From a virus (lineage: Duplodnaviria > Caudoviricetes): a stretch of 64,000 nt of DNA. The DNA is taken from the IMG/VR virus record IMGVR_UViG_3300013212_000088, positions 197,425 through 261,424 of that record. One strand, written 5' to 3'. Positions within the stretch are counted from its first letter, which is position 1. Each line of letters opens with the position of its first letter. Under the pieces are notes generated by a model. The model had not been told where the DNA came from. It ran no database searches and saw only the letters and a program-made list of their open reading frames with translations. A program made the position numbers and the translations under genes. Below, piece by piece: positions 7,626-64,000 of this stretch.

Positions 7626-7684
7626 ATTAAATAAACTTAATGTGACTATATTATAGTTTGCAACAATTAGAATGTAAATATAGT

Positions 7685-9485: not shown

Positions 9486-10265
9486 TTAACTCGCTAATAT
9501 ATTCAAATAAGGTGAATCACTGTTAAGCAATTCTTTGGTGGCATTTATTAGATTTTCTGGGCCGTATTCTATCACAAAATCATCTGGGTCACACTTTTCA
9601 GGTAGATATAAACTCTTCCCAATAAAATTGTTTTCTGAAAGTTTTTGAAATATCTTGTCAGTGGCTAATTTACCAGCGATATCTCCATCTAATAACAAAA
9701 CAATTCTGTTGCAATATCTATAAAGTAAAGCTAAATGAAAATCAGATAAAGCTGTTCCACATAAGGCAACAACATTATTTATGCCATTTTGTCTAAGAAC
9801 CAAAACATCAAAATAACCTTCAACAATATAAACAAAATTACTTTCACGGATATATTCTTTTGCTTTATCTAAATTAAATAAATGCTTAGACTTTTGATAG
9901 GGTTCATTTATCCACTTACCTTTCATCCATTTAGAAATCCTATCATCTGCTTTTGAAGGTTCGTAGCTATAAGTGTCCCAGAAAGATTTTATAGTTAGTT
10001 CAATATAATCAGGTAATTGCCTTCCTGCTAAAGCTATCAATCTTCCATGAACATCTCTAATAGGAACAATTACTCTGCCTCTGAGCAATGGAAAAACATA
10101 TCTAGAATATGGAGGGCAAAAACCCAAATCATTAGTTTCTAAATGACAGAGATTAAGGTTTCTAGATTTAATATATTTTTTAACAGTTTCATTTTCAATC
10201 AATTCCCTTGCAAATTGATTGAAAATAGTAGATCTAGATAAATCTTCCATAGTTAATTTTACCAT
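9486..10265 (-). CDS. dnaG: DNA primase catalytic (Toprim) core, no zinc-binding domain
   Basis: RVIVPI, AGR, VEGYFD, DGDIAG, DPDD motifs; no CHC2 finger. Confidence 0.9.
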   Translation of the reverse strand: MVKLTMEDLSRSTIFNQFARELIENETVKKYIKSRNLNLCHLETNDLGFCPPYSRYVFPLLRGRVIVPIRDVHGRLIALAGRQLPDYIELTIKSFWDTYSYEPSKADDRISKWMKGKWINEPYQKSKHLFNLDKAKEYIRESNFVYIVEGYFDVLVLRQNGINNVVALCGTALSDFHLALLYRYCNRIVLLLDGDIAGKLATDKIFQKLSENNFIGKSLYLPEKCDPDDFVIEYGPENLINATKELLNSDSPYLNILAS

Positions 10266-10303
10266 TCAAAAAAGAAGGTGCAGATTTCTCTACACCTCTT
10301 TTA

Positions 10304-16300: not shown

Positions 16301-16680
16301 TAGAATGCGTTTGGATCATTGCCAAGAGCTGACAGTGCAAGAAGATTTCTATAGCCAGTTTCATTCTGTGCTAAAAGTGTAAGATGGTTTAATTTTCGTC
16401 TCTTTCCATCTTCAGTTTTAGACTTATCAAATCTATCTTCACAGGTATAGACTTCAATTCCAATGATAGGCTTAATTGCAGCTACATTATCAATAGGATT
16501 TCTGCAGCCATTGACAAACTCTACTGTTCCAGACATTTTTCCATGGTCAGTAATAGCAGTAGCACGAAAACCCATTTCTCTTGCTTTTTTGGCATAATTT
16601 GTAGGGGATGGCAAAGCATCTTGAACCGAGAAATGGGTGTGGGCATGTAAATGCACAAAGTCTTTATTTGAACTACACAT
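13384..16680 (-). CDS. dnaE: DNA polymerase III alpha subunit (C family) with intact PHP domain
   Basis: HLHAHTHFS, TDHG, SNDVHY (PHP); RGSGVGS, PDVDTD, HAAG, KYDYLGL, YAFNRSHA. Confidence 0.97.
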   Translation of the reverse strand: MCSSNKDFVHLHAHTHFSVQDALPSPTNYAKKAREMGFRATAITDHGKMSGTVEFVNGCRNPIDNVAAIKPIIGIEVYTCEDRFDKSKTEDGKRRKLNHLTLLAQNETGYRNLLALSALGNDPNAFYYSPRIDWGCIQEHSEGVIALSGCLASEVNQALMKQDIEHAETVAQRFKNVFGDRYFMELQYHGIDEQKNNLNHLINIANKYDIPLCASNDVHYLDKLDWRLHDVLIQMRDQREASSGVAKKNGKKEAYGTHQFWLKSYEEMNKIFSTVPAALKNSVLISEMVDDFFKIDVEHILPKANIPINDPEFKTFWKSNLAYNSANEAYLAYRAFSGLKNLGLDKNKEYMKRLRSELSQIWYMGVTDYFLIQNEMVAFMKSQNIYYGIRGSGVGSLVNYCLDVSSVDPIRWNLMFERFLNPGRGTQYQIDIYDYPSKMWLADKGKQDQVAYSKAITKACKTWLGENLEYAKHEPDILKEIWVLENQGLASYVCDLANKGIKSKHNDSNLWTAHILGICEKEPEGELIISKVATLPDVDTDIDASRRSEVIDWAVGRFGADHVAQIGAWGTYGAKAAVVGALKTSERFIEKYGSQVHHEALKVSGSIPKVPDITIDTALKDSSEFANHYRFWKEEIDIAKQLVGTISNFSVHAAGVIICGDPVSQHAPIENSKGNLCSGFDMFNVERVGLVKYDYLGLNTFTQIANTIKMIKERRGVDIDVRKDIDLEDPKIYKNIYAKGKTASVFQFASRGMQEALRKVNASSMEDLIAVVSLYRPGPLEYIDTYAEGKMNPSAVHYVDPIVKKHLEVTYSIMVYQEQGMQLARDMAGFDHNEVDKLRKAISKKNDKLFAEVTDLFKQKSLARGVDEKAVDSVLSLMSKFVGYAFNRSHACSYAILSFWTAWLRYYYPHEWLATCIHLAKDDEDKVAMLKKECSMERIVIKNANVNESGLITLVNSNNEIMLPLSSIKGVGARAEDIIIHQPYVDCKDLCMRARPNRGMVDALAFSGALYCLPDSHGYELVEDFMEYYDSLVAERSEEDKRIAREAKKKFKPAISLTEAFQIDESDVIIERNRTNKVRQPIKLRGNIKSLISDDLFD

Positions 16681-16727: not shown

Positions 16728-17564
16728 TTAAATGGTTCTTAATTTTATTAAGTTTTTAGAATCTGAAGTTTTCCATTCAGTATTCTTGTGTTTATGATAC
16801 CTTGCCGGAAGTAATAGTTCAAAGTTCTTCTGAACTGTTTTACTCAAAATATCAGGACGGCATTTAAGCGGTAATCTATCAAAATCTTTAATTATATAAG
16901 AATTAGGCAGTTGCTTAATCATAAAATAATTGTTGTCAATCTTTTTAATTTTGTATGCAGCTGAATTATCTTGAATTGATTTTGATGCCATAACCCCAAG
17001 AATGTTTTTAGAAACGGAAACTTTTTCAGTGTTAGTTTTATATTCTAAAAATGCACACTCTTTGATTGCATTTCTTACTGTATTTTCACTTTGACCTATA
17101 TTTTCTTGAATTGAGGCTAAGCTGATTGGTCTATGATCTACATACCGACCTGCAACACAACCAATTAGAAGATTTTTGATATTTTTGCTATTCTTATATC
17201 CATTTGCATTAAAGTAAGTGAATGGAATAACAACAGGTTCAGAACGAGCAATTTTTGGAGAAAGCCTTAGTACTATCTGCTTAAAACTGAATAAACCAAC
17301 AGTTTTACAGCCATTTTTACCTTTAGGCTCTCTCCAGTATTTTCCAATGCCCTTATTAATTTTTGAATAGGCGAAAGTGCTTTTCAATCCTAATACTTTT
17401 TCACAAAGCTTTAAGATATCACCCATCCATATAATTCCAGAGCCAGAAGAATCTATTTTTTTAAGAATACTCCAGATAATAAAAATATCTGATTCATTAT
17501 TCTTTAAAGCTTCTGCAGCAAGTTCTGGATAAAGTATTAAACAATTACAAGTCTGAATTCTCAT
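16728..17564 (-). CDS. hypothetical basic protein, possibly DNA-binding
   Basis: 278 aa Lys-rich ORF in replication operon. Confidence 0.55.
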   Translation of the reverse strand: MRIQTCNCLILYPELAAEALKNNESDIFIIWSILKKIDSSGSGIIWMGDILKLCEKVLGLKSTFAYSKINKGIGKYWREPKGKNGCKTVGLFSFKQIVLRLSPKIARSEPVVIPFTYFNANGYKNSKNIKNLLIGCVAGRYVDHRPISLASIQENIGQSENTVRNAIKECAFLEYKTNTEKVSVSKNILGVMASKSIQDNSAAYKIKKIDNNYFMIKQLPNSYIIKDFDRLPLKCRPDILSKTVQKNFELLLPARYHKHKNTEWKTSDSKNLIKLRTI

Positions 17565-53822: not shown

Positions 53823-54723
53823 ATTAGCAGCTCAAGGCATTATCGAACACAAAGCAACAGACCAAGAAATTGATGCGCTTGTTGATAGTAGTTTGATTGA
53901 TAATGGCGAAAATTATATAATCAATCAAGCTAATCTAAAAAATGGCTTGATGAGTATATTTCCAAACTTAAAAAACGTGGAATTTGAAAATTTGTCTGAT
54001 TGTTTTGGTGAATATATCTTAGAACTTTCATCAATAACATTACCAATTGAAATTTCTAAAAATAATGTTCCAATATTTAAAGCTACACTACATCACGAAC
54101 TCCAACATGCACAAGACCCAAGAATGCAAAATGTACCTGAAAAAGTGCAAGCAAAAAGCGACGAAGCTAATCTTGCAAACTATTTAGGTGTTTCTAAAAT
54201 TGATGAAAATACTCAAATACCAACATATGAAGAAGTTGTTGAAAATGTATTCCAAAGTTTCGAAGGCAGAGAATCAACACCAGAAGACCAAGATTTTATA
54301 AATCAAATCAAACAGAAATATACACCAGAAAAATATAATCTAGTAATTGAAAGAATCAAAGCTGGTGATCATCCTTATTTAAATGCAGAATACGAAAAAC
54401 CAGCCAATTTGAAGGATTTTAGAACCTTATTTTCTATCTTTAATCTAATGTCAGTAAAGGAAATTATTTCTTCAAATCCATCATATGACAATCAACAACA
54501 CATTAAAACAATTATTAATATTTTAAGAAAGCCATCTTCTCCCACTTTTAAAAAATTAGAAGAATTAATAATACAAAAAAACCCATCTTTTGCTGAAACA
54601 TTTCCTCCAACATTTTTAAGAGAAATGAATACAAACTCAAAATATGAAATACAATTTAAAAAACAAATGGGAAATATTATCAACGAATTACAACAACTAT
54701 TAGAATCAGGTAAAGGTAACTAA
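53812..54723 (+). CDS. MWY-leader protein with HExxH zincin motif
   Basis: MWYKLAAQ; TLHHELQHAQD. Confidence 0.7.
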   Translation: MWYKLAAQGIIEHKATDQEIDALVDSSLIDNGENYIINQANLKNGLMSIFPNLKNVEFENLSDCFGEYILELSSITLPIEISKNNVPIFKATLHHELQHAQDPRMQNVPEKVQAKSDEANLANYLGVSKIDENTQIPTYEEVVENVFQSFEGRESTPEDQDFINQIKQKYTPEKYNLVIERIKAGDHPYLNAEYEKPANLKDFRTLFSIFNLMSVKEIISSNPSYDNQQHIKTIINILRKPSSPTFKKLEELIIQKNPSFAETFPPTFLREMNTNSKYEIQFKKQMGNIINELQQLLESGKGN

Positions 54724-54724
54724 A

Positions 54725-55423
54725 ATGTGGTATCGAAAAGCAATGGATTTGAGTAATCTTAATAGAGAATTCTCAATTGAAAAAGAAAATGCAGTTGAAG
54801 ATTACGATGAGCAATCAATGAAAGAAAGCGTGGAAGATTTGTTTGCTAAAGTAAGAGCAGGCGAAGAATATACATCTCCTTCCGGCGCAATTAAAGTTAT
54901 GCCACCAAGAGAAGAACCACCATTTACAGATGAAGAAGTGGATGGCAGATTTGATAGCGAAAGCACCGATGCATATGATGTTTATGAGGGAATAAAAGAG
55001 TTCCCATCTACAATAACCACTCTAAAAAATACAGCTCAAATTATATCCAGATATATCGATAGCGGAGTGTTACAAGAGTTTAATAGAAAAATTGATTCAT
55101 TATCTCCTATGTTAGAAAAGATAATTCAATCAGCTTTTGAAAAAGTACAATTGATTGAATCTTCTTTCAACAACCCTGAACTATCTAGACAATTTGATAG
55201 AGAAGGTTATCCAAAACTAACTGAAGCTGAAGTAATGAACTCTAATATATTAACACTCCAAATTACAAAAGCTATCAACGAATTATATAACTCTATAAGA
55301 AATGAAGATGCTCGACAAGAATGGCTTAATACAATGGCAAGAAAAAGTGTGGCTGCAAACTTTTTAAGACCTGCAGATAAAACAAGATACAAAGAAACAA
55401 TGAATAATATTTGGGGCCTATAA
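54725..55423 (+). CDS. MWY-leader hypothetical protein
   Basis: MWYRKAMD. Confidence 0.7.
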   Translation: MWYRKAMDLSNLNREFSIEKENAVEDYDEQSMKESVEDLFAKVRAGEEYTSPSGAIKVMPPREEPPFTDEEVDGRFDSESTDAYDVYEGIKEFPSTITTLKNTAQIISRYIDSGVLQEFNRKIDSLSPMLEKIIQSAFEKVQLIESSFNNPELSRQFDREGYPKLTEAEVMNSNILTLQITKAINELYNSIRNEDARQEWLNTMARKSVAANFLRPADKTRYKETMNNIWGL

Positions 55424-55425
55424 TT

Positions 55426-55932
55426 ATGTGGTATAGATTAGCAATAATTATCAACGATGGACAATTAGAATCAGAACTTCTCAATAACGCAAAAACTACT
55501 GATGATATTAAAAGCAACTATAGAATGCTTGTAAAAAAATACCACCCAGATGTAAACCAAGATCCTGATTCCACAGAAAACTTAAAAAACCTTACTAGAG
55601 TTTATGAAGAAGTGAGAGATCAACCACTATACACTACAAATGAAATAAGAAATGAAACTACTGAAGATTCTGTTAGAGATGATATAGAACTTCAAGATAA
55701 TTTCTTAAACACAGATGAAGAAGCTTTAAAAATGGGAATAGTTCAGTCTGTAGAAACATATTTCAATAATAATGTTCCTGAAATGTATGACACTCCTGGC
55801 TTTGATGTCTACGAAAATATAACAGAAATAATTTTCGAAAATACTAAAAATATAAACCCAACACCATATAAAACAATTTCAAATCTTATTAACTCTATAG
55901 CTGGAAAATATATAAGGGAGAATTATAACTAA
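55426..55932 (+). CDS. MWY-leader J-domain (DnaJ-like) protein
   Basis: MWYRLA; DDIKSNYRMLVKKYHPDVNQDP with HPD motif. Confidence 0.8.
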   Translation: MWYRLAIIINDGQLESELLNNAKTTDDIKSNYRMLVKKYHPDVNQDPDSTENLKNLTRVYEEVRDQPLYTTNEIRNETTEDSVRDDIELQDNFLNTDEEALKMGIVQSVETYFNNNVPEMYDTPGFDVYENITEIIFENTKNINPTPYKTISNLINSIAGKYIRENYN

Positions 55933-56156
55933 TTCTTCTTTAAACTCTTAGCATATTTTAACATAGAATCTACTTGGGCCTTACTTGGCTTCTCACTACT
56001 ATCAACTCTATACATATCATAAATAGTCTTACGTAAATCTTTAGTCTTTAACTTACCACCAAACAAAACCGCAGCAGGTTCATGGCATTTAATACACCGA
56101 TCCCTAAACTCAACTTTAGGATCAACTAATAACAAAAATATTAAAATTGCATTCAT
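55929..56156 (-). CDS. small monoheme c-type cytochrome-like protein
   Basis: hydrophobic N-terminus MNAILIFLLL, CIKCH, candidate axial Met in IYDM; ATG at 56156. Confidence 0.65.
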   Translation of the reverse strand: MNAILIFLLLVDPKVEFRDRCIKCHEPAAVLFGGKLKTKDLRKTIYDMYRVDSSEKPSKAQVDSMLKYAKSLKKN

Positions 56157-56229
56157 ATCTGTTTTATAAAAGGACAGATAAAACAAAATCAGTAAAATAA
56201 TACTATCAACCCTCAAAAAGGAAAAAAAT

Positions 56230-56565
56230 ATGAATAAAAGAACTGTAATGGCATCCTTGAACAAGATTGCTAACGAACTCGACAACAATGGCTTACACAA
56301 TGAAGCCGATACAGTAACCAAAGTTATGTCCAGATTAGCTTATGATGATTTTGATGAAAGAGATTATTATGCTGACAAAATGGAAGATAACATTGAAGAT
56401 TACATGCCATATGGTGATGAAGACGATGATATGGACATGGACGAAGATGATGACTTTGACATGGGTCCAGAATCAGAACCATTCGACTTTAGTTCACCAG
56501 AAGATAAAGACGACATGTATGGTAATGATATGAAAGGATACATGGACAAAGATACCGATTTTTAA
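56230..56565 (+). CDS. NKR-leader protein 1 with Asp/Met-rich acidic body
   Basis: MNKRTVMASLNKIANELDNNGLHNEADTVTKVMSRLAY. Confidence 0.75.
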   Translation: MNKRTVMASLNKIANELDNNGLHNEADTVTKVMSRLAYDDFDERDYYADKMEDNIEDYMPYGDEDDDMDMDEDDDFDMGPESEPFDFSSPEDKDDMYGNDMKGYMDKDTDF

Positions 56566-56582
56566 TCTTAAATAAAATCAAA

Positions 56583-56624
56583 AATAAATAAGTGGCAATA
56601 AAACAATTTTGCCACTTATTTATT
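56583..56624 (+). terminator. 16-bp stem-loop between NKR genes
   Basis: AATAAATAAGTGGCAA ... TTGCCACTTATTTATT. Confidence 0.55.
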
Positions 56625-56638
56625 TATTAGGTAAACAA

Positions 56639-57067
56639 ATGAATAAAAGACAAATAATAGCATCTTTAATCAAGATTGCTAATGAATTAGATAATAATGG
56701 TATGAACAATGAAGCAGATGCATTAACCAATGTAGCTGAAAGATTTGAAGATACTAGATCACCTATTGAAAAACGTGCTTCAGAAAAAATTAAATTATTA
56801 CAAGATAAATTGAGAAAAATAATTTATAAGTCATATAAAACATCTAAAGATGGAGATATGACAAGAACTGATGATATTCAAGCTGTTCTTATGAAAATAT
56901 TATTTGAAAAAGATTTAGGAACATTCTTGAGAGATGAAGCTTACAAAACTGGAGCTAACCTTCCTGCTGGCCAAATCATGACAATAGTTCATTATATTAA
57001 TATGCTCAAAGAAAATCCATATGCCCCATCTGAAATTTATAATTATATTGACACATTATTAGATTAA
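56639..57067 (+). CDS. NKR-leader protein 2
   Basis: MNKRQIIASLIKIANELDNNGMNNEADALTNVAERF; ATG at 56639. Confidence 0.75.
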   Translation: MNKRQIIASLIKIANELDNNGMNNEADALTNVAERFEDTRSPIEKRASEKIKLLQDKLRKIIYKSYKTSKDGDMTRTDDIQAVLMKILFEKDLGTFLRDEAYKTGANLPAGQIMTIVHYINMLKENPYAPSEIYNYIDTLLD

Positions 57068-57072
57068 ATAAA

Positions 57073-57428
57073 ATAAATAAAAGACAAATCATAGCATCAT
57101 TAAATAATATAGCCAGCACATTAGATAATTCAGGTTTATTTTGCGAAGCTAATACAATCACCAAAGTAATGATAAAATTAGCTCAAGAGGAAAAAATAAA
57201 ACAAAATATTCTGATGATGAGTTAAATGAAGCTATGACAGAACAAGGCATTCAAAAAGCCTTCGAAACATACAAAAGCAAAGGCGGAAGCGCAAGCCAAG
57301 ATTCATTTGCATCACAATTCAAATTTTTAATTGGAAGAATGCTTGAAGGCTTTACTAACAATATGGGTGTTGCTATTGCTGAAGAAAAATACAAAACAAA
57401 TAATCCATTCTGGGATCCTAGAGACTAA
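57073..57428 (+). pseudogene. NKR-leader protein 3 with ATA start and a frameshift
   Basis: ATA-AAT-AAA-AGA-CAA-ATC... reads INKRQIIASLNNIASTLDNSGLFCEANTITKVMIKLAQ and stops at 57223-57225; the -1 frame continues into ORF 57234-57428. Confidence 0.65.
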
Positions 57429-57430
57429 AT

Positions 57431-57462
57431 AAAAAAAGGGAGAATAAAATCTCCCTTTTTTT
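57431..57462. terminator. bidirectional terminator
   Basis: AAAAAAAGGGAGA-ATAAAA-TCTCCCTTTTTTT. Confidence 0.8.
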
Positions 57463-57622
57463 ATATCTTGTCAATCTTTTTCAATTCATATAATAAATTG
57501 CCAACCACATAATTAGGCACATTTATAATATCAGCTACCAAAACCCTCAACGCATCATTCTTTAATACAACAATCGCAATCTTTAAAATTATATTCTGAT
57601 AGTCCTTAGATAAATTTTCCAT
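57461..57622 (-). CDS. 53-aa hypothetical protein (not in ORF track)
   Basis: AGGGG SD; MENLSKDYQNIILKIAIVV...KKIDKI. Confidence 0.45.
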   Translation of the reverse strand: MENLSKDYQNIILKIAIVVLKNDALRVLVADIINVPNYVVGNLLYELKKIDKI

Positions 57623-57721
57623 TCTAATATCCCCTAATGTAAAATTATCTTTTATTTTTTATTGAATACTTTACTCTACTATAATTAAAAATATATCCCT
57701 GCCAAATTCTCTTAATGTACT

Positions 57722-58663
57722 TTATGTCTCTAATGATAATTGTTTATCTTCTTGCTTAGTATTGTCTAAAATAAAAGCTTCAATTAATTCTGGAATCCTA
57801 TGAAAATCTAAATAAGATATCACCAACAATGGAATGCATCTCTCAGTACACCATTCAATTTTTTTTGCATCCCTTAATTTATATAAAGTGAAATTCTTTA
57901 TATTCAATTCCATATCCTTGCTTCGATTAACTTGAATATAATGCTGCTTGCCATTTAACTCAATAGCATACTTTTTGCCATCCAAAAAAACCATAAAATC
58001 AATCTTTAATACATTTGTTAATTTCAATGAAGGATCTGTAAATTGTGGAGTGTAGCTGTAACCATTATCAGTCAAATAACTCTCAGCTAAAATCTCGGCC
58101 TTACTTCTACAGCAATAAGGACATCCAATAGGTCTAGTAAGGTGTATATGAGCTTGTGCAAAACTATCAAAATACTTACCACAAAGAGTGCATAAAATAT
58201 TCTCAACTTTATGACCACCATCAATAAATTTAATGCCACTATAATCACAATGTCTATGTAATGGTTTTGCTCTTCTTATAAACTCAGACTTTTTTAATTT
58301 TTTTCTTGCAGCCTGTTCTATTCTGGCACAATCAAAACAACCATATTGAGTGTGGTTCTTAGCTGTCTGGTAAAAATATTTCTGACAAGCCTTACAAAAT
58401 ATAATTACATAAGTGTTGGCATTATAATAAACAGTATACTTATAATCATACTTATCACCATGAAATAATTTACTCTGTTTTATAAATATTGGAGTGTTTT
58501 TAAATTTTGGAGATTGTAATTCTTTCTCGGTTGGAAAATAATCTCTAGAGTAAACGAATTCTCTTAACTTATTCAACTTCTCAAAAAAATCAGTAGCATC
58601 AACATTAGGCACCATATGATTTATATTATGCAAAGGTACTGGTCTTAAATCAGCAAATTTCAT
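57722..58663 (-). CDS. homing-type endonuclease with repeated zinc-binding units (DUF723-like)
   Basis: HGDKYDY..., CKAC, CFDC, CTLC, CPYC; IDFMV...IELNGKQHY. Confidence 0.75.
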   Translation of the reverse strand: MKFADLRPVPLHNINHMVPNVDATDFFEKLNKLREFVYSRDYFPTEKELQSPKFKNTPIFIKQSKLFHGDKYDYKYTVYYNANTYVIIFCKACQKYFYQTAKNHTQYGCFDCARIEQAARKKLKKSEFIRRAKPLHRHCDYSGIKFIDGGHKVENILCTLCGKYFDSFAQAHIHLTRPIGCPYCCRSKAEILAESYLTDNGYSYTPQFTDPSLKLTNVLKIDFMVFLDGKKYAIELNGKQHYIQVNRSKDMELNIKNFTLYKLRDAKKIEWCTERCIPLLVISYLDFHRIPELIEAFILDNTKQEDKQLSLET

Positions 58664-58741
58664 AAAAATATTCTAACATATACCCAGATAAAAAAGATAC
58701 CTAATTTTACAGAAAACGATAATTTTTTACTACCCCCTACC

Positions 58742-58975
58742 CTATCTCCCAAAATATTCAGACACAACACACCTCTCACATTCCAACATATTTCTATAAG
58801 GCATACCATAGTGATCTAAAGCAACAGAATAAATCTCTAACCAATAATCAACACCATCAAATAATAAACAATAATCAAAATCAATGTTGCCAAAGTTTAT
58901 AGGACAATCTTTACTAACAGATATAGATAAAACATAATCCAAAAACTCACTAACAAAAACACTTAAACCTGACAT
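58742..58975 (-). CDS. hypothetical protein
   Basis: 77 aa, GGGGAG SD. Confidence 0.5.
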   Translation of the reverse strand: MSGLSVFVSEFLDYVLSISVSKDCPINFGNIDFDYCLLFDGVDYWLEIYSVALDHYGMPYRNMLECERCVVSEYFGR

Positions 58976-59086
58976 AAAATAATCTCCCCATATACTCTGA
59001 GATAAAATGCAGCTGAACGATGAAATAACAACATATACAAAGATATATTACACACAAAACTTCTCAGCTACAATTATCTCAGAAAC

Positions 59087-59184
59087 TCTCCCAAAATAAT
59101 CTCACAAAAGAATTAATTAAAAAACTAAAACATATACAAAAATACTTAAAAGATATATATAGCTTTTGTGAGAGTTTTGGGAGA
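59087..59184. repeat. long imperfect inverted repeat around a 52-nt AT-rich loop
   Basis: TCTCCCAAAA-TAA-TCTCACAAAAG ... CTTTTGTGAGA-G-TTTTGGGAGA. Confidence 0.8.
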
Positions 59185-59697
59185 ATGATAAAGGGGAGAA
59201 AATTATACCCACATACCTAGATAAAAAAGATACCTAATTTCTGGGAAAACGATAAAAATATAAGCCCCCCCCCTATGATCTCTGGGAAAAAATGTGGGGG
59301 AAGATGGATTTACACTGTGGGGGAAAATTGGGGGAAAAGTGGATTTCGATAGGGGAGGGTATGGACGAAAATTTCTGGCCCACGCAACACTCTTCCTTAT
59401 GGTACCTAAATGTCAAAGTACCCCCCCCTATCAGTGTTTATATATATTAGAGACAATACATTACATATATATTGTTATAGATGCTAAACTATTATGCTTA
59501 TCATTTTTAACTAGAGGAATACATAGCTTATCTCTTATCTGCATTGTTTTTTAATACCATATAGATAAATACAAATAGCCACATCATTACACATAGCATT
59601 AATGTATTCAGGAGTATGTTAGTAATAGATGGTGACATATCATTATTATACTTTTAATTACAAACGATAGCCTATTTATAATGGGATTTCAATTTCT

Positions 59698-59716
59698 AAA
59701 AAATCTATGATTTTTT
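59698..59716. promoter_or_regulatory. palindrome AAAAAATC-NNN-GATTTTTT copy 1
   Basis: seen five times between 59698 and 63272. Confidence 0.75.
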
Positions 59717-59744
59717 AGGTTTTTATTTTCAATAATATTTTGGT

Positions 59745-59770
59745 TATCCCTTGACTTTTGCCAAGGGATA
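59745..59770 (-). terminator. hairpin of the ATCCCTTG..CAAGGGAT family
   Basis: TATCCCTTG-N8-CAAGGGATA. Confidence 0.65.
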
Positions 59771-59777
59771 TGATAGG

Positions 59778-59984
59778 TCAATAACCGAGAATAACTCTTA
59801 CTGTTTTGTACTCGGTGCTGATTTCATAAAGGTGAGTATCCTTGCCAGTAATATCTGCTATTGCTTTTAACGCTTCTTCAAGGTTTGCAGATGAAGAAAA
59901 TTTGGTTATTGGAAATGAATCCCAATAGAAATTACCATAGTCAACAAGTAGGCTAAAGCCCTCTAGGTTTGTAGTGTTTTTCAT
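59778..59984 (-). CDS. small early-type hypothetical protein
   Basis: 68 aa; GCTGTAATAT-N6-ATG upstream. Confidence 0.6.
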   Translation of the reverse strand: MKNTTNLEGFSLLVDYGNFYWDSFPITKFSSSANLEEALKAIADITGKDTHLYEISTEYKTVRVILGY

Positions 59985-60110
59985 ACAGTTATATTACAGC
60001 ATAACACAGCCCTATGCCACAAATAATATATTGATGGCTCTATGTTTTAATTTTTGATAATATTTTTTAAAAGTATGGCGAAGCCCTTGTTTTGGCTGTA
60101 ATATATAGAC

Positions 60111-60575
60111 ATGGAAAACACTACTATGCAACTCTGGGAAGTCAAGGGCTTCCAATCCTCGTCGGTCAAGACTCTGTTCATCGGTAAGACAGCCAACGGT
60201 CAAGATTGTATTGGATGCGCTTGGGACGCATACACAACCTACATCTACGCCTATGAAGGTATCGTAGACACCTTCCTGTACTACATGGAAAAATTCAACT
60301 CTGTTGGAAAGGCTATGTCCGCAACCAAGTTGCGTGATGGTATGCAAAACCAAACATACTACTCGCCTTACTGGGCTACTATGCCTAGCAAGGTTCATAA
60401 CCAACTCTATCGCTTTAGCCGATATGACATGGTTCGTCATATGTCAAACATCGTGGTTCATCAAAACGTGTGCTTTGATACTCCTGAGAATGCAATCAAG
60501 AATCTCATCTCAAGCGGTGATATTGAAGCAGAACGAAGCCGCTTAGTAGACTGTATGGCAAGACGGATAGGCTAA
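60111..60575 (+). CDS. early-type hypothetical protein
   Basis: 154 aa; GCTGTAATAT-N6-ATG upstream. Confidence 0.65.
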   Translation: MENTTMQLWEVKGFQSSSVKTLFIGKTANGQDCIGCAWDAYTTYIYAYEGIVDTFLYYMEKFNSVGKAMSATKLRDGMQNQTYYSPYWATMPSKVHNQLYRFSRYDMVRHMSNIVVHQNVCFDTPENAIKNLISSGDIEAERSRLVDCMARRIG

Positions 60576-60581
60576 CCGCTA

Positions 60582-60613
60582 CCACATCCCTTGGCGAGAG
60601 TCAAGGGATGTGG
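60582..60613 (+). terminator. hairpin of the ATCCCTTG..CAAGGGAT family
   Basis: CCACATCCCTTG-N8-CAAGGGATGTGG. Confidence 0.65.
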
Positions 60614-60638
60614 GAAATATTATTGAAAATAAAAAGCT

Positions 60639-60657
60639 AAAAAATCTACGATTTTTT
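60639..60657. promoter_or_regulatory. palindrome copy 2
   Basis: AAAAAATC-TAC-GATTTTTT. Confidence 0.75.
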
Positions 60658-60680
60658 TATAAATTAATTTTGCATAATAA

Positions 60681-60707
60681 TTCCTCCCCTGCAAAGCAGG
60701 GGAGGAA
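60681..60707. terminator. GC-rich hairpin
   Basis: TTCCTCCCCTGC-AAA-GCAGGGGAGGAA. Confidence 0.6.
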
Positions 60708-60736
60708 GGGTGTGAACTATCTCACATAGAAATATG

Positions 60737-60764
60737 TTGTAAGCCTGTTCCCAGATGATATACT
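60737..60764 (+). promoter_or_regulatory. sigma70-type promoter, leaderless
   Basis: TTGTAA-N16-TATACT with extended TG; ATG 6 nt downstream. Confidence 0.7.
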
Positions 60765-60770
60765 ATAGCC

Positions 60771-60971
60771 ATGAACACTACAGACAAGGTAATCGTAAAG
60801 TTTCGGTTCCGTACTCCTCGCATGGTTTATTCGGTCTACTTCAATGGTATGTTGCTTACCTCTGGGTATGATGCACAACAGTTGGGTGAAGACTATTCCC
60901 GTAAGTATGGCGTAGAATGGTTGTTGCAGGATGGCGACAAGTTTTATTCACAGAAAGGTCTCGTCAAGTAA
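60771..60971 (+). CDS. small hypothetical protein
   Basis: 66 aa. Confidence 0.6.
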   Translation: MNTTDKVIVKFRFRTPRMVYSVYFNGMLLTSGYDAQQLGEDYSRKYGVEWLLQDGDKFYSQKGLVK

Positions 60972-61210
60972 TGGCACACTTTTATCTTAATCAGGGTGGA
61001 ACACGTTGGGTAACAGACAGCAAGATTCTAGTTACAGGAATCGCTAACGGCAAGCATTATCACAGGATGCGTAAGCCATTGTATTGGGAACAGTGTGGTA
61101 ACTTTGTCCGCTGTTGTGTAAAGGTTGGGAGTTCTGTTTACCTTGGCGCAACTTACGACAGGGACGGTGTTACTACTTTGGATATCATGAAGTGTGGAAG
61201 GATAAGATAA
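60971..61210 (+). CDS. small hypothetical protein
   Basis: MAHFYLNQGG; TAATG coupling. Confidence 0.55.
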   Translation: MAHFYLNQGGTRWVTDSKILVTGIANGKHYHRMRKPLYWEQCGNFVRCCVKVGSSVYLGATYDRDGVTTLDIMKCGRIR

Positions 61211-61437
61211 TGTCAAACTGGACTAAAGGTTTCATCTGTGTAGCAATTGCATCCCATGCTTTTTTGTTTGTAATCTTGTTTGGTTGCAAGTTAGGAGATG
61301 CGTTCTATATCTCTGGCGTTGACTTGTTTGGTATGGTAATGTCATCTGCTTGCTCCTTGGTTTATATTCCTGCAATCTTGGTGTCTTATGATTCGGATAA
61401 GACACGAAAGAAACTTGATGAACAATTACAGGCATAA
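61210..61437 (+). CDS. small two-helix membrane protein
   Basis: MSNWTKGFICVAIASHAFLFVILFG; TAATG coupling. Confidence 0.55.
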   Translation: MSNWTKGFICVAIASHAFLFVILFGCKLGDAFYISGVDLFGMVMSSACSLVYIPAILVSYDSDKTRKKLDEQLQA

Positions 61438-61663
61438 GGCTCTCTCTCTTTGGTCGGCTTTGCTGGCTGAAGAGAGAGAGCATAAGTTTGAAAGCACCAA
61501 TTGTAAACCATCATGTAAAGGGTGGAATGGTTGGGCACCTTATTGCGAGTGTTTTGAGAATCATTGCACATTCGTTCCTAAAGGTAATATTGATGATATG
61601 GAATTGGTTATTATTGCAAAACCAATTGATGAAGTCTTAAGGAATATACAGGTCATTCCTTAA
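61388..61663 (+). CDS. small Cys-rich hypothetical protein
   Basis: CKPSCKGW...CECFENHC; start uncertain. Confidence 0.5.
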   Translation: MIRIRHERNLMNNYRHKALSLWSALLAEEREHKFESTNCKPSCKGWNGWAPYCECFENHCTFVPKGNIDDMELVIIAKPIDEVLRNIQVIP

Positions 61664-61666
61664 GAT

Positions 61667-61708
61667 AAACCCTCCCAGTTTAGTAGTGTTTGCTGGGAGG
61701 GTTTTTTA
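61667..61708 (+). terminator. intrinsic terminator
   Basis: AAACCCTCCCAG ... CTGGGAGGGTTT plus T-run. Confidence 0.7.
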
Positions 61709-61727
61709 TTATCAGTATTTAATTCCT

Positions 61728-61746
61728 AAAAAATCGTAGATTTTTT
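61728..61746. promoter_or_regulatory. palindrome copy 3
   Basis: AAAAAATC-GTA-GATTTTTT. Confidence 0.75.
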
Positions 61747-61772
61747 TATAATTTTATTTTTGATAATAAAAG

Positions 61773-61803
61773 CCCATCCCCTTGACAAAGTCAAGGGGAT
61801 GGG
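61773..61803 (-). terminator. hairpin of the ATCCC(C)TTG..CAAGGG(G)AT family
   Basis: CCCATCCCCTTGAC-AAA-GTCAAGGGGATGGG. Confidence 0.7.
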
Positions 61804-61814
61804 GAGAAGACTTA

Positions 61815-61979
61815 TCAGTCCTCTCCTTCACTATCATCATTTACATCTGCCCATTTGTCTTCACAATCTGGTTCAACATCAAATTGTTCATCCAGTTCTT
61901 CATCTGTCATATAATCCATTGGGTCAACGTCAACACTAGGGAAGATTCTTGCTTCCAATTCTGCTTCAAGATAATCCAT
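61815..61979 (-). CDS. 54-aa extremely acidic peptide (not in ORF track)
   Basis: GGAG SD; MDYLEAELEARIFPSVDVDPMDYMTDEELDEQFDVEPDCEDKWADVNDDSEGED; 23 D/E versus 2 K/R. Confidence 0.7.
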   Translation of the reverse strand: MDYLEAELEARIFPSVDVDPMDYMTDEELDEQFDVEPDCEDKWADVNDDSEGED

Positions 61980-62062
61980 AACTATTCTCCATTACATACA
62001 TCTTACAGCATAGTCAAAAGAAAAACAAGAAGAATCTGTAAAATAAATATATTGTTTTGCCC

Positions 62063-62090
62063 TTGTAATCGCCCATTGTTTTGATATAAT
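62063..62090 (+). promoter_or_regulatory. sigma70-type promoter
   Basis: TTGTAA-N16-TATAAT with extended TG. Confidence 0.7.
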
Positions 62091-62111
62091 AATGCTGTAA
62101 GGAACAAAGAC

Positions 62112-62324
62112 ATGGAAATCAAAGATTACGACAAAGATAGATCCACAGTTCTCAACGCATTGTACTGTAGTGTAAAGTCTGCATTGGAAATGAACTATGT
62201 ATCGGAAACCTGCAAGTTACACTGGATTGCAGATGACTTCAAAGTTGCAAAAGATAAGTTGGAAAAGATTGAAGAAGAGATGAGAGTTTTGCTTGGAGAC
62301 CCGTTTGCTGAGGAGGAGAAGTAA
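62112..62324 (+). CDS. small hypothetical protein
   Basis: 70 aa; AAGGA SD. Confidence 0.6.
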   Translation: MEIKDYDKDRSTVLNALYCSVKSALEMNYVSETCKLHWIADDFKVAKDKLEKIEEEMRVLLGDPFAEEEK

Positions 62325-62413
62325 TGGAAAGCATTGTGATGTCAACTCTAGTAACTTTGGGCTTGTTGTCAATCGTTTTCGGTATCATATCAGTAAAGGT
62401 TGAGGTAAAGTAA
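62324..62413 (+). CDS. 29-aa single-helix membrane peptide (not in ORF track)
   Basis: MESIVMSTLVTLGLLSIVFGIISVKVEVK; TAATG overlaps at both ends; GGAGG SD. Confidence 0.6.
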   Translation: MESIVMSTLVTLGLLSIVFGIISVKVEVK

Positions 62414-62673
62414 TGGCAGTAGAAATTATTGGTTATTGGAACGCTTCTTACATTTTTGAAAGTATTGAGTTGGGCGATGATGAACAGGAACAGTTTTTGG
62501 AAAAGTTCACTACAGGTGATACTAATACTGCTTTGACATTAGTTTCCAGACACAAGTTCTTTACAATGTTGAAAGACTTTGTGAAGGATCTTACTGATCA
62601 GGAACCACAAGAAGCAGTACAGATGGTTCAATACTGGTATCCCGAGGCCAAGTATGTGAATGTAGAAGCATAA
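62413..62673 (+). CDS. small hypothetical protein
   Basis: 86 aa; GAGG SD. Confidence 0.6.
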   Translation: MAVEIIGYWNASYIFESIELGDDEQEQFLEKFTTGDTNTALTLVSRHKFFTMLKDFVKDLTDQEPQEAVQMVQYWYPEAKYVNVEA

Positions 62674-62710
62674 AAAGAAAGGGAGGGCGAAAGCCCTCCC
62701 TTTCTTTTTT
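62672..62710 (+). terminator. intrinsic terminator
   Basis: AAAAAGAAAGGGAGGGC-GAAA-GCCCTCCCTTTCTTTTT. Confidence 0.85.
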
Positions 62711-62745
62711 GATCCTAAGCTTTTTATTATTGATTTTCAATTTCT

Positions 62746-62764
62746 AAAAAATCTATGATTTTTT
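62746..62764. promoter_or_regulatory. palindrome copy 4
   Basis: AAAAAATC-TAT-GATTTTTT within an approximately 57-bp near-copy of the copy 1 spacer. Confidence 0.75.
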
Positions 62765-62779
62765 TAGGTTTTTATTTTG

Positions 62780-62807
62780 AATAATATTTTTGCATACCTA
62801 TATTTAT
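62780..62807 (+). promoter_or_regulatory. sigma70-type promoter
   Basis: TTGCAT-N16-TATAAT with extended TG. Confidence 0.7.
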
Positions 62808-62841
62808 TTGATATAATAAGACATCACTGAAGGAGATAGCA

Positions 62842-63201
62842 ATGGCTACAAAAACTGGTTTGACAACGATGGATGCGGTAGTAAAGTTGATGGAATTCAA
62901 CAAGCTTTACAACACAATTGTCACTACTTCTGTCAATGAGAAGAACAATCTTACTCAAGCAGAATGGGCATTGGAAGATGCAAAGTTTGAAATTCTGCGT
63001 ACAGTTGATGTCAAGGAATTGGGTTCTAATTCTGAACAGCGTGAAGCAAAACTCGCTGGTATGCTTGCAGAACAGGTGAAGGCTGTGCGGTCTATAACTC
63101 TTCGTTATGAATTGATAAAGGCAGAAGAGCAAAAGTGCCGTGCTAATCTAGAATTTGCAAAGCACTTGGTTCGTGCTTCCGAATCCTTGATGGAAGCCTA
63201 A
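62842..63201 (+). CDS. coiled-coil hypothetical protein
   Basis: 119 aa; AAGGAG SD. Confidence 0.65.
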   Translation: MATKTGLTTMDAVVKLMEFNKLYNTIVTTSVNEKNNLTQAEWALEDAKFEILRTVDVKELGSNSEQREAKLAGMLAEQVKAVRSITLRYELIKAEEQKCRANLEFAKHLVRASESLMEA

Positions 63202-63205
63202 AACC

Positions 63206-63232
63206 AAAAGGAGGGCGAAAGCCCTCCTTTTT
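63206..63232 (+). terminator. intrinsic terminator
   Basis: AAAAGGAGGGC-GAAA-GCCCTCCTTTT. Confidence 0.85.
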
Positions 63233-63253
63233 ATTATTGAAAATTAAAGCCTT

Positions 63254-63272
63254 AAAAAATCGTAGATTTTTT
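63254..63272. promoter_or_regulatory. palindrome copy 5
   Basis: AAAAAATC-GTA-GATTTTTT. Confidence 0.75.
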
Positions 63273-63303
63273 AGCAATTTAAATTACATAATAAAATGTC
63301 AAG

Positions 63304-63331
63304 AAAATACCCCATTACTGGGGTATTTTTT
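63304..63331 (-). terminator. terminator of the minus-strand operon
   Basis: AAAATACCCCA-TTAC-TGGGGTATTTT. Confidence 0.7.
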
Positions 63332-63603
63332 TAATCCATTATGTTGGCTAGTCGGTCTTCCTTGGTTTTGATATGACCTGAGAACCAACCATTGCGTTTT
63401 GGCTCTGCATTTTCTGCCTGAGTAACAAGAGATAGTTGATGCTTGTAAACCTCTTCCAATGCAGAGATTTGGGTGGCTACTTGATTTGCCACCTTTGCAT
63501 CATGACGCAATAGGTCAATCTGGATGTCCTTAAGAGCGACAATCTGATGACGAGTTGAGAGCAAAATCTCACGAAGCCTATCCGAATTTCTAGCTGATTT
63601 CAT
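63331..63603 (-). CDS. hypothetical protein
   Basis: 90 aa; GGAG SD. Confidence 0.6.
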   Translation of the reverse strand: MKSARNSDRLREILLSTRHQIVALKDIQIDLLRHDAKVANQVATQISALEEVYKHQLSLVTQAENAEPKRNGWFSGHIKTKEDRLANIMD

Positions 63604-63605
63604 AA

Positions 63606-63998
63606 TTATACTCCTACCAATTTCATATGAATCTCTGCGTTCTCAAACTCTGTGCTTGGGGTATTGGTCTCTGTCAAGAACCCAACCCCCACTTTGTAAA
63701 TATAACCCTTGATGTTTGGTGTGTCTTCAAGGTTGTCACAATACTCGGCAACTTCTTCATCAATCACATTCTCAAAGTTGTTGAACCGAGTGTTGAACTG
63801 CTCAATAATACCATCCCCAACATAAAAGAAGACCAATGGTCTGATGTCAGAGAAGGCAATGAACTCTTTACCATTGAAGAATGTGCCTTGCCCAACAAAG
63901 CCTTCTTCCATGTACTGCTCATAAACGTCTGGCTTGCCTTCCGAAAAGAAAGGTCTCAACTCTACAGTGAGAGACATTGGTTGTGAAACTGTTTGCAT
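63606..63998 (-). CDS. hypothetical protein
   Basis: 130 aa; start at the window edge. Confidence 0.55.
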   Translation of the reverse strand: MQTVSQPMSLTVELRPFFSEGKPDVYEQYMEEGFVGQGTFFNGKEFIAFSDIRPLVFFYVGDGIIEQFNTRFNNFENVIDEEVAEYCDNLEDTPNIKGYIYKVGVGFLTETNTPSTEFENAEIHMKLVGV

Positions 63999-64000
63999 AT

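Follow-up and report, generated by a model that had tools for sequence, protein, structure and literature searches.

Palindrome-centred junction modules probably bound shuffled accessory-gene cassettes in an uncultured giant freshwater phage

Five palindromic spacers separate small transcription units

The window analysed here is the 64-kb end of a virus contig of 261,424 bp, whose source is an uncultured freshwater giant phage. It contains five exact matches to the palindrome AAAAAATC-N3-GATTTTTT, at positions 59698, 60639, 61728, 62746 and 63254. The chance expectation in shuffled sequence is 0.04 matches, five copies were reached in none of 100 shuffles, and no sixth copy with at most one mismatch is present in the window. 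Every copy lies in an AT-rich spacer adjoined by one or two GC-rich hairpins, and the alignment of copies 1 and 4 extends for about 80 bp and contains one indel and a few mismatches. A preliminary description of this DNA had reported the same five positions, the AT-rich setting beside one or two GC hairpins and about 57 nearly identical bp shared by copies 1 and 4; the positions all proved exact, the setting is true of every copy, and the estimate of the shared stretch was fair.

Around each palindrome extends a longer conserved element, referred to here as a junction module. The first copy, module 1 (59674–59741, palindrome 59698–59716, no strand assigned), stands at the cluster boundary. It has an A-type arm on the left and a B-type arm with an ATAAT box on the right, and it is faced by the terminator hairpin (59745–59770, minus strand) of the minus-strand gene at 59778–59984, the tail of which enters the right outer box. 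Module 2 (60615–60681, palindrome 60639–60657, unstranded) has two B-like arms and is faced from the left by the terminator hairpin (60582–60613, plus strand) of the plus-strand gene at 60111–60575 and from the right by a GC hairpin (60681–60707, minus strand). An extended -10 promoter (TGATATACT, 60756–60764) is found downstream of the latter hairpin, followed by a leaderless start at 60771. The operon beginning there (60771–61663, plus strand) ends in a terminator (61670–61701, plus strand) which faces module 3 (61704–61770, palindrome 61728–61746, unstranded). This module is flanked by two convergent terminators, the second one (61773–61803, minus strand) belonging to the minus-strand gene at 61815–61979. 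Module 4 (62722–62788, plus strand, palindrome 62746–62764) is the sole terminator-to-promoter copy within the window: on its left is the terminator (62680–62701, plus strand) of the plus-strand genes at 62112–62673, and on its right, where arm and box match the UP-element consensus in register, is a putative sigma70-type promoter (62790–62817, plus strand; TTGCAT, 16-nt spacer, TGATATAAT) of the gene at 62842–63201. The terminator of that gene (63210–63227, plus strand) faces module 5 (63230–63296, palindrome 63254–63272, unstranded), again flanked by convergent terminators, with that of the minus-strand gene at 63331–63603 (63307–63326, minus strand) on the other side. This arrangement supports the earlier proposal that the spacers partition small autonomous transcription units.

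Most genes of the cluster have no Pfam or PHROG match, and genes for an EcoRI-like nuclease, a ClpP-like protease and a GHKL ATPase, as well as a tRNA array, are found in the cassettes bounded by modules. These cassettes carry predicted promoters and terminators of their own, and both orientations are present.

The palindrome is confined to one region of the phage genome

The preliminary description had not seen the palindrome in the first 59 kb of the window, which was borne out, and a scan of the rest of the record extends the restriction to the whole 261-kb contig: neither the motif or a near-match to it nor an nhmmer profile covering the entire element gave a hit outside the five places. 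In this record the contig ends within the cluster. There are at least 17 copies in a near-identical strain (at least 14 in its contig) and at least 21 copies in a related phage (21 within 22 kb of its contig G001); the cluster extends over 22 to 30 kb in these two. In a relative's contig the cluster is internal, with other genes on both flanks, and thus there is no evidence that it is located at a physical end of the genome.

These data bear on the idea that the element is a selfish miniature repeat of MITE or REPIN kind, or an injection-stop or packaging signal as proposed for T5. It is short, has inverted ends and exists in many copies, its cluster stands at the contig end in the window's record, and module 2 together with its right hairpin recurs as a 95% identical copy between unrelated genes at a different locus of the near-identical strain (L062:5922-6041). 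Like the REP/BIME and REPIN sequences of bacteria, the elements are short palindromic repeats 3' of genes, often between convergent genes. However, those sequences are spread over extragenic sites genome-wide, whereas here the copies are restricted to a single phage region, have an AT-only stem and keep a constant register to terminators and promoter elements. Furthermore, no empty and filled sites were seen between the relatives compared, the cluster is internal in one of them, and no Y1 (RAYT-type) transposase (PF01797) was found in the 261 kb, which represent 73% of the genome. We therefore give this idea very little credence.

A module of about 67 bp surrounds the palindrome

The conserved unit measures about 67 bp, as against 19 bp for the palindrome which forms its core, and its two arms are asymmetric. 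This block extends from -24 to +24 around the palindrome; its stems carry 1.98 bits of information, its loop 0.7 and its arms 1.1, against 0.1–0.2 outside. The outer boxes stand at a constant distance of 15±1 nt from the palindrome on both sides, and read TTATTAT...ATAATAA in the window clade and TTAAC...GTTAA in the sister clade. On one side the module is joined by an inward-facing intrinsic terminator whose U-tail is the fixed outer box, and on the other either by a sigma70-type promoter with an UP element formed by the other arm, or by a second convergent terminator. Read in the usual direction, the order is as follows: the intrinsic terminator of the upstream gene, first its GC hairpin and then its U-tail, which doubles as the left outer box (TTTTTATTAT); a 15-nt arm rich in T; the perfect AT-only palindrome T-A6-TC-N3-GA-T6-A; the second arm with the ATAAT box, serving as a putative UP element in the correct register; and a sigma70-type promoter (TTGCAT, 16–17 nt, TGnTATAAT), often with a leaderless start next to it.

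Among 82 elements classified, 39 join a terminator to a promoter, 20 (24%) lie between convergent terminators without a promoter, 17 join a terminator to something else, and none lies between two promoters. At least one inward-facing terminator is present at 76 of the 82 (93%). In the window clade the promoter is found exclusively on the B-arm side, and only few copies with two B arms were seen.

Since nearly every copy follows a terminator and none lies between divergent promoters, the palindrome might be transcribed into a weak bidirectional back-up terminator or insulator, which halts read-through toward the next promoter or the convergent gene. The hairpin is present in all predicted folds, and the genuine bidirectional terminators of the sister clade share the A6-stem-loop-stem-T6 layout. 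Nevertheless, the stem would consist of A-U pairs only, with no stable G+C-rich part and with the U6 run consumed by pairing to A6, and the palindrome was not called in the terminator scan. Beside strong terminators such a device would be redundant. The predicted folding energies of the modules are modest, from -6 to -12 kcal/mol (z-scores from -0.7 to -4). We regard this alternative as quite unlikely, also in view of the pairing pattern described below.

The promoter side of the module resembles an UP element and is helically phased

Strong sigma70 promoters of the rrnB P1 type have an UP element with the consensus AAAWWTWTTTTNNNAAA (PMC2412878). The B arm and its box are AT-only and match 11–12 of the 14 specified UP positions in 12 of 13 promoter-side arms, the background 99th percentile of this score being 12; the match has a near-constant offset and stops some 5 nt short of the -35 hexamer. 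In window copy 4 it amounts to 10 of 14, one base further on. The B arm and ATAAT box thus resemble an UP element, a putative binding site for the RNA polymerase alpha subunit, in being directly upstream of the -35 hexamer in the right register. Unlike an UP element as such, the match covers only half of the module, and the module's arm also adjoins terminators which lack any promoter. Early timing of these genes is suggested only by the sigma70-type promoters, and host RNA polymerase is presumably used.

Distances from the dyad to the -10 hexamer fall into classes of 55.5, 66 and 76–78 bp. By this spacing, the palindrome is on a constant face of the helix upstream of the promoter. Such phasing suggests a transcriptional role, which a view based on cassette shuffling leaves unexplained. 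One candidate is an operator for a symmetric dimeric regulator of phage or host, which would boost or silence adjacent early promoters in concert from an upstream position dependent on the face of the helix. It agrees with distance classes about 10.5 bp apart, with half-site centres separated by one helical turn, and with a promoter at that distance in about half of the copies. However, about a quarter of the copies have no promoter and lie between convergent terminators, a centre near -68 is incompatible with repression by occlusion, and no candidate binding protein was identified.

Dyad symmetry of the core is maintained while its sequence varies

One argument for an operator comes from the window clade, where about 47 copies share the same 16 core bases around a free 3-base centre, with a single-base substitution in two copies only. 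Elements were also searched for by anchoring on the outer boxes alone, with the core left free. In the window clade every in-cluster copy found in this way has at its centre a perfect palindrome with 8 bp or more, while 23 chance box matches outside the clusters have stems of at most 5 bp. In the sister clade, such a palindrome, with 9 bp or more, is present in 43 of 44 copies. Two main core lengths occur there (A6-N7-T6 and A6-N10-T6), with few intermediates, one class has a changed A-tract, and the inner bases vary within one genome with complementarity kept. All 340 aligned stem cells are paired (100%), and double changes were observed at 4 of 10 stem pairs, e.g., AACAAA with TTTGTT. None of 500 shuffles reaches this level, and slid controls pair at 40–69%. 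Further metagenome elements gave 45 perfect palindromes out of 48, with 26 distinct cores.

On this comparison it is the dyad symmetry itself, and not one fixed sequence, that is maintained, because the inner bases of the sister clade vary and still remain complementary. This counts against a single operator sequence: a fixed half-site and spacing hold in the window clade but fail within one sister-clade genome. The operator suggested in the preliminary description is weakened accordingly by these varied, perfectly palindromic cores and by the promoterless copies, and we consider it unlikely. The pairing pattern is unusual for an RNA stem, as G.U pairs number only four among the 340 stem cells, all adjoining the loop, and mismatches are near-absent in the other approximately 100 cores listed.

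Breakpoints between related phages cluster at the modules

The earlier suggestion that gene-content breakpoints of relatives fall in these spacers was tested, with a positive outcome. Of 185 ends of BLAST high-scoring pairs, 47 lie within 60 bp of a palindrome centre (18.8 expected; peak at 28–47 bp), and Logan contigs from two runs on lakes and one on a river gave 30 joint endpoints, 14 of which are at most 36 bp away from a centre (7.9% expected, p=1.7e-8). Such clustering is partly built in, as alignments always run through the shared repeat to its far edge, and endpoints were counted on both partners and are not independent. Among the joints are permutations, an inversion joint, deletions between palindromes 2 and 3, and the insertion at 63296, where relatives carry 229–271 bp precisely at the right edge of module 5. 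A cassette for a small acidic protein occupies a different slot in G001, in reversed orientation. Breakpoints that can be placed fall at the outer edges of modules or at recurrent terminator hairpins, and not demonstrably within the palindrome. Judged by these joints, the modules mark where related phages swapped, deleted and flipped small accessory cassettes.

A dedicated site- or structure-specific recombination system of integron or shufflon type, which excises, inserts and inverts cassettes, would account for breakpoints, inversions and permutations at modules. Every contig of this phage group breaks inside the cluster, which is in keeping with such a system. Integron attC arrays likewise have small cassettes between sites of about 60 bp that are imperfect palindromes and have inverted outer boxes, and conserve the symmetry of the folded strand rather than its sequence; a perfect palindrome within inverted boxes is found here, and the TTAAC...GTTAA of the sister clade recalls attC R boxes. 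On the other hand, the attC boxes read RYYYAAC...GTTRRRY while those of the window clade lack AAC/GTT, the arms between boxes and core are unpaired here, and the cassettes, which lie in both orientations, are each equipped with a promoter and a terminator. Tyrosine integrase (PF00589) is absent from the 261 kb, i.e., 73% of the genome (the control was positive in 14 of 14 genomes), and in the same sequence neither a serine recombinase, an IntI-type recombinase nor a Y1 transposase was found; endonuclease VII had no match there either, with an uninformative control. Orthologous modules moreover keep their positions between relatives. We consider a dedicated system highly improbable. As to the recombination site proposed earlier, the data can be explained without a dedicated one, and short homology is enough in the precedent discussed next.

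Cassette shuffling of the PeSL type

In T4-type phages (RB49/phi1, T4/PST, KVP40/nt-1), promoter-early stem-loop (PeSL) elements delimit cassettes which are shuffled by homologous recombination between copies, and recombination of neighbouring copies gives mini-circles (PMC2839356, PMC4122927). The analogy to PeSL, already drawn in the preliminary description, is apt. Both are composites of a terminator stem-loop and a sigma70-like promoter with AT-rich DNA upstream of the -35 hexamer, both exist as many conserved copies in a hyperplastic region of small ORFan cassettes that are transcriptionally self-contained, and in both indels, replacements and displacements between relatives occur at or beside the copies. 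The differences are that here terminator and promoter are separated by some 60 bp of conserved AT-only spacer containing a perfect covarying palindrome, that roughly a quarter of copies join two convergent terminators, and that cassettes are flipped as well. Also the phage does not look T4-like. BLAST gave no match to cultured phages; the T4-type capsid protein Gp23 (PF07068) had no match in the 261 kb, but the control genomes for this search were uninformative.

We conclude that the palindromes are probably the centres of portable junction modules of about 67 bp, which bound accessory-gene cassettes and allow PeSL-like shuffling. According to this explanation, the modules would bound autonomous cassettes in a hyperplastic region of 25–30 kb, and general homologous recombination between them, the presumed pathway, would delete, insert, permute or flip cassettes. 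Expression would stay intact, since each cassette has its own promoter and terminator and the same module stands at each junction. Should this explanation hold, we propose only tentatively that the palindrome acts at the DNA level as a hairpin- or cruciform-prone core; it would be kept self-complementary through selection or hairpin-templated correction. On this reading it provides every junction with 19–24 bp which are identical in both orientations, so that recombination could occur between inverted copies and not just between direct ones. Two further observations sit uneasily with PeSL-like shuffling. Compact terminator-promoter junctions without a palindrome, i.e., the classical PeSL layout, are present in the same cluster, so the palindrome is dispensable for such a junction. 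Inversions via the palindrome predict that A-A and B-B arm pairs are common, but no more than a few B-B copies were seen. It is also conceivable, though very unlikely, that a structure-specific enzyme of the host, or encoded in the remaining approximately 27% of the genome, recognises the palindrome as a DNA hairpin or cruciform. If so, the cluster would be a phage-borne, orientation-independent exchange system of integron kind, in which each cassette has its own promoter and terminator.

PeSL-like shuffling in this phage would extend the phenomenon from T4-like phages to an apparently unrelated giant freshwater phage group, with evidence from natural populations in the form of contig joints, taken from independent studies of a river and two lakes, and of partial matches in 13 studies. 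It also presents a clean puzzle, namely a short AT-only palindrome that conserves symmetry rather than sequence and is helically phased to host-type promoters. Provided that its parts work as read, the module may offer a compact insulated junction for synthetic constructs. Because the cassettes include a nuclease, a protease, an ATPase and a tRNA array, the modules may mark trading sites for genes of host takeover and competition. Some RNA-library contigs cross a module, which may reflect DNA carry-over.

The palindrome is confined to one cluster that runs past the contig end

The preliminary description reported palindromes of the form AAAAAATC-N3-GATTTTTT at 59698, 60639, 61728, 62746 and 63254 of the window, and we found exact matches at these five places, against 0.04 expected by chance (dinucleotide-preserving shuffles). 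The pattern is thus real, local and strongly non-random, and allowing one mismatch added no further site in the window. The palindrome had not been noticed in the first 59 kb, which is confirmed and extended here: it was absent from the remainder of the source contig (linear, 261,424 bp, IMG/VR; completeness 73% by CheckV) in a motif search of the whole contig, where the next-best sites have two or three mismatches and are chance-like, and an nhmmer profile of the whole element returned the same five places only. Since the cluster runs into the contig end, five copies represent a lower bound. An Rfam search gave no match at any gathering score; its weak matches were terminator hairpins.

A motif scan of IMG/VR led to two multi-copy contigs. 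The contig of a related phage, G001 (36,357 bp), is homologous to the last 19 kb of the window in reverse orientation (70-88% nucleotide identity) and carries 19 copies with a 3-base centre and 2 with a 4-base centre, all within 334-22,023. The second contig, from a near-identical strain, overlaps the window from about 61.7 kb onward and encodes a protein 99% identical to that of window gene 62842-63201. It holds at least 14 copies, lengthens the cluster by more than 20 kb and, past its last copy, runs on into other genes, outside the 261-kb contig. Judging from these contigs, the cluster is internal to the genome and spans about 25-30 kb, with one copy of the junction block centred on the palindrome (hereafter the module; copies 1-5 from left to right in the window) per approximately 1.1 kb. 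BLAST of the region, one module and one neighbouring protein against 50,697 phage records revealed no relative, and a related-locus search with the 303-aa neighbour protein found none. The element is absent from Bacillus phage G, whose A6...T6 matches number just four, all scattered and none of them palindromic. In every assembly of this phage group the break falls inside the cluster, namely at the window end (64000), at the starts of G001 and of contig 3300032214_001361, and in the contigs behind two other related loci, L126 and L128; this pattern agrees with a region that varies structurally within natural populations.

The module is a directional junction of terminators and promoters

Alignment of 39 copies, oriented by their arms, delimits a conserved block of about 67 bp, with 24 nt on each side of the palindrome. 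Information content is 1.98 bits in the two 8-base stems, 0.7 bits in the 3-base centre, 1.1 bits in the arms and 0.1-0.2 bits outside the block. The consensus reads tTTTATTAT-(3)-atTTnaATTtCT-AAAAAATC-nnn-GATTTTTT-AcnatTTtAtTTTnaATAATA, with ATTAT/ATAAT boxes at a constant 15±1 nt on either side. Two types of arms, A (AGAAATACAAAT) and B (ACAATTTTATTTTG), both read outward, do not pair with each other, thus the element is directional and not a single long palindrome. The idea of a long hairpin was rejected for the same reason, both arms being T-rich and the symmetry limited to boxes and core. Static curvature was also set aside: with 13 or 16 bp between them, the A6 and T6 tracts are not in phase with the helix, which would make a simple phased-A-tract bend unlikely.

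Two types of features are found beyond the boxes. One is a GC-rich hairpin with the box itself as its T-tail, a predicted intrinsic terminator facing the module; the other is a predicted promoter (TTGCAT, 16-17 nt, TGnTAYAAT), located on the B side only in the window's clade (the window, its near-identical strain and the G001 type). Among 82 elements typed in seven sequences, 39 are terminator|promoter junctions, 20 terminator|terminator and 17 terminator|other, five have neither feature, a single one is promoter|other and none is promoter|promoter. Within the window, copy 4 belongs to the terminator|promoter type, copies 2, 3 and 5 have hairpins on both flanks, and copy 1 forms the cluster boundary. 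The terminator hairpins form a few recurrent families (GGAGGGC-GAAA-GCCCTCC; ATCCCTTGAC-N3-6-GTCAAGGGAT), seen in the window at 62680-62701, 63210-63227, 59745-59770, 60582-60613 and 61773-61803, and in L123, a sequence of the related-phage cluster, at 11497-11520, 15513-15530, 16768-16791 and 17289-17312. As these families are common to several cassettes and phages, they offer additional homology for recombination.

In 12 of 13 promoter-side arms, 11-12 of the 14 positions specified by the published consensus of the UP element, promoter-boosting upstream DNA (AAAWWTWTTTTNNNAAA; PMC2412878), are matched; window copy 4 matches 10/14, and the 99th percentile of the score in surrounding AT-rich DNA is 12. 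The match keeps a nearly constant offset and leaves approximately 5 nt between its end and the -35 hexamer, a register also found in E. coli UP elements. On this basis, the B half of the module is a predicted UP element. The module-linked promoters are of a putative host sigma70/sigmaA type; transcription of the cluster by the host polymerase, presumably early, would fit. Contigs from RNA libraries cross one module, and DNA carry-over may explain them.

Measured from the dyad centre, the -10 hexamer begins 55.5 bp away in the window's clade. In the sister clade, that is, more distant relatives whose modules have variable palindrome cores, it begins at 66 bp (22 cases exactly, 27 to within 2 bp), and in four further cases at 76-78 bp. 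These classes differ by about one helical turn, and the extra turn of the sister clade consists of a longer palindrome plus a AAATTTATTTT tract beside the -35 hexamer. Such phasing is suggestive of a coupling of palindrome to promoter, and none of the readings considered below accounts for it. Many cassette genes look leaderless, with an extended -10 box, exactly 6 nt and ATG without a Shine-Dalgarno sequence (window 60756-60773, 60097-60113 and 59982-59998, minus strand; L123 around 6290, 11810 and 12950), and other cassettes have a normal GGAG leader.

Symmetry of the core is kept while its sequence varies in the sister clade

In order to avoid circularity, the search for cores was anchored on the outer boxes alone. 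At each in-cluster box match in the window's clade the central inverted repeat is perfect over 8 bp or more, with a single-base substitution in the 16-base core in two copies only, and stems at 23 chance box matches elsewhere in the genome do not exceed 5 bp. Three more distant relatives were found via protein 62842-63201. In this sister clade the module is the same but for its outer boxes, TTATTAAC...GTTAATAA, and has a constant length of 62 bp; 43 of its 44 centres are perfect palindromes no shorter than 9 bp (T-A6-N10-T6-A or T-A6-N7-T6-A). Among copies of one genome the inner bases vary (TTCTATAGAA, TTTAaaTAAA, TATttatATA, TTCAaaTGAA, TCTAgaTAGA), and in one core class AACAAA is paired with TTTGTT. 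Searching IMG/VR with the outer-box pattern TTATTAAC-N13-TAAAAAA proved too unspecific, chance matches being among the matches listed.

In a gapless alignment of 36 sister-clade elements, all 340 of 340 stem cells are in standard pairs, with two-sided changes at 4 of 10 pairs (28 cells). None of 500 shuffles reached the observed covariation, and slid controls gave pairing of 40-69% only. Metagenome contigs added 48 distinct elements with 26 core variants, 45 of the elements being perfect. Dyad symmetry, and not sequence, is therefore what is conserved in the palindrome. An operator had been among the functions proposed in the preliminary description; the uniform core of the window's clade agrees with it, but the sister-clade cores vary and yet stay palindromic. 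The same variability weighs against a site for a phased upstream regulator, as it would be hard to reconcile with one sequence-specific dimeric protein. To our knowledge, none of the sites of CodY, FNR/CRP, Fis, IHF, Fur or LexA fits the module.

The palindrome could also act in the transcript as a weak bidirectional insulator, and single-strand folds do contain the central hairpin in every case, with modest energy. However, an RNA stem would tolerate G.U, and G.T states are nearly absent against many fully compensated core variants: there are four in the aligned set, all beside the loop, and next to none in about 100 other listed cores, where mismatches are too few for a G.T versus A.C comparison of strand asymmetry (RNA versus DNA). 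We thus read the constraint as acting on DNA, where it could reflect selection for a hairpin or cruciform, or hairpin-templated correction of quasi-palindromes, a known mutational process. The reading we favour is that the palindrome would serve as a DNA-level, structure-prone and orientation-neutral core.

Breakpoints between relatives concentrate at the modules

When the window was compared with the near-identical strain, aligned blocks started 29 nt left of palindrome 3 and ended 24 nt right of palindrome 5, at the right edge of whose block the strain has 229 extra bases. The sole break away from a module or its terminator was a replacement inside one operon. In seven pairwise comparisons covering both clades, 47 of 185 HSP ends lay within 60 bp of a module centre (18.8 expected) and peaked at 28-47 bp, which corresponds to the module's outer edge; ends at the far edge of a shared repeat are partly built in, as alignments run through the repeat. 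Of the 13 studies listed, 12 contributed a total of 19 DNA runs from lake, river, waste and drinking water. In every one of these runs about 29-48% of the words of the region were present, a share that a mosaic would be expected to give.

The stretch 59400-64000 was then compared with Logan contigs from two lake runs, a river run and a metatranscriptome. Among the 15 joints listed, 14 of 30 endpoints were no more than 36 bp from a centre, against 7.9% expected (p=1.7e-8), or 12 of 26 with each place counted once, the endpoints not being independent of one another. One joint is a deletion that starts inside palindrome 2 and ends inside palindrome 3. Others include edge-to-edge deletions between further modules, a joint between opposite strands at two module edges, three permutations that return from 63604 to a point immediately left of palindrome 3 or 4 (three studies) and a 271-base insertion at 63296. 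The enrichment of endpoints at modules is nevertheless large in two kinds of data, and the expectation that gene-content breakpoints of relatives fall in these spacers was borne out by both.

The cassette of a small, very acidic protein (61815-61979, minus strand) occupies another slot in G001, where the homologue (L123:19482-19667; 52% identity across 44 aligned residues) also has the opposite relative orientation. Orthologous modules hold their position between relatives, thus the element is not hypermobile. The module might also be a dedicated recombination site, which would suit the breakpoints; however, the 261 kb of the 73% complete contig contain no gene for a tyrosine integrase, serine recombinase or Y1 transposase. 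Endonuclease VII and Gp23 gave no match in the 261 kb, with uninformative controls. Taken together, the evidence supports well the view that the modules are insulated cassette junctions which double as recombination patches.

Comparison with PeSL cassette junctions

Promoter-early stem-loop (PeSL) elements combine a strong sigma70-like promoter with AT-rich upstream DNA and a stem-loop terminator in one conserved unit. In T4-type phages they are concentrated in hyperplastic regions and associated with indels and replacements between close relatives (PMC2839356, PMC4122927). Their copies can recombine into mini-circles, help by a dedicated protein being an open question (PMC2839356, PMC4122927). 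The present modules share all sequence-level features of PeSLs. They differ in their covarying AT palindrome, in that some are terminator|terminator junctions, in the flipped cassettes and in a carrier phage that does not look T4-like. What is particular to them is that the evidence points to maintained symmetry and not to a maintained sequence. We found nothing on similar jumbo-phage repeats in the literature beyond the PeSL papers.

Compact junctions that lack the palindrome and have a terminator immediately next to TTGACA-16/18-TATAAT are also present in the cluster (L123:2530-2587, 4184-4243 and 16436-16495) and represent the classical PeSL layout. The palindrome is thus an addition and not a requirement. 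The junction at 4184-4243 is predicted to drive an array of five tRNAs (Asn, Glu, Gln, Thr, Arg; L123:4253-4815), and the sister clade has these same tRNAs on the flanks of its cluster.

Cargo and surroundings of the cluster

Cluster cargo in the related phage includes an EcoRI-family restriction endonuclease (L123:6317-7162, Pfam E=5e-20), a ClpP-like protease (1568-2200), a GHKL-type ATPase (9596-10930) and a TPR protein (7487-7996), which suggests genes of host takeover or inter-phage competition. An HNH or homing-type endonuclease (window 57722-58663, minus strand; PHROG 559, E=9e-28) lies 1 kb outside the first module, in a stretch with no alignment to G001. Directly before the first module, about 480 bp (59220-59697) lack a convincing gene and are partly conserved in G001 (72-79% identity). 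G+C content rises to 0.38-0.40 inside the cluster (60001-64000) from 0.29-0.31 at 54001-60000, and a codon model trained on the rest of the genome gives cluster genes low scores, thus the cassettes differ compositionally from the core genome.
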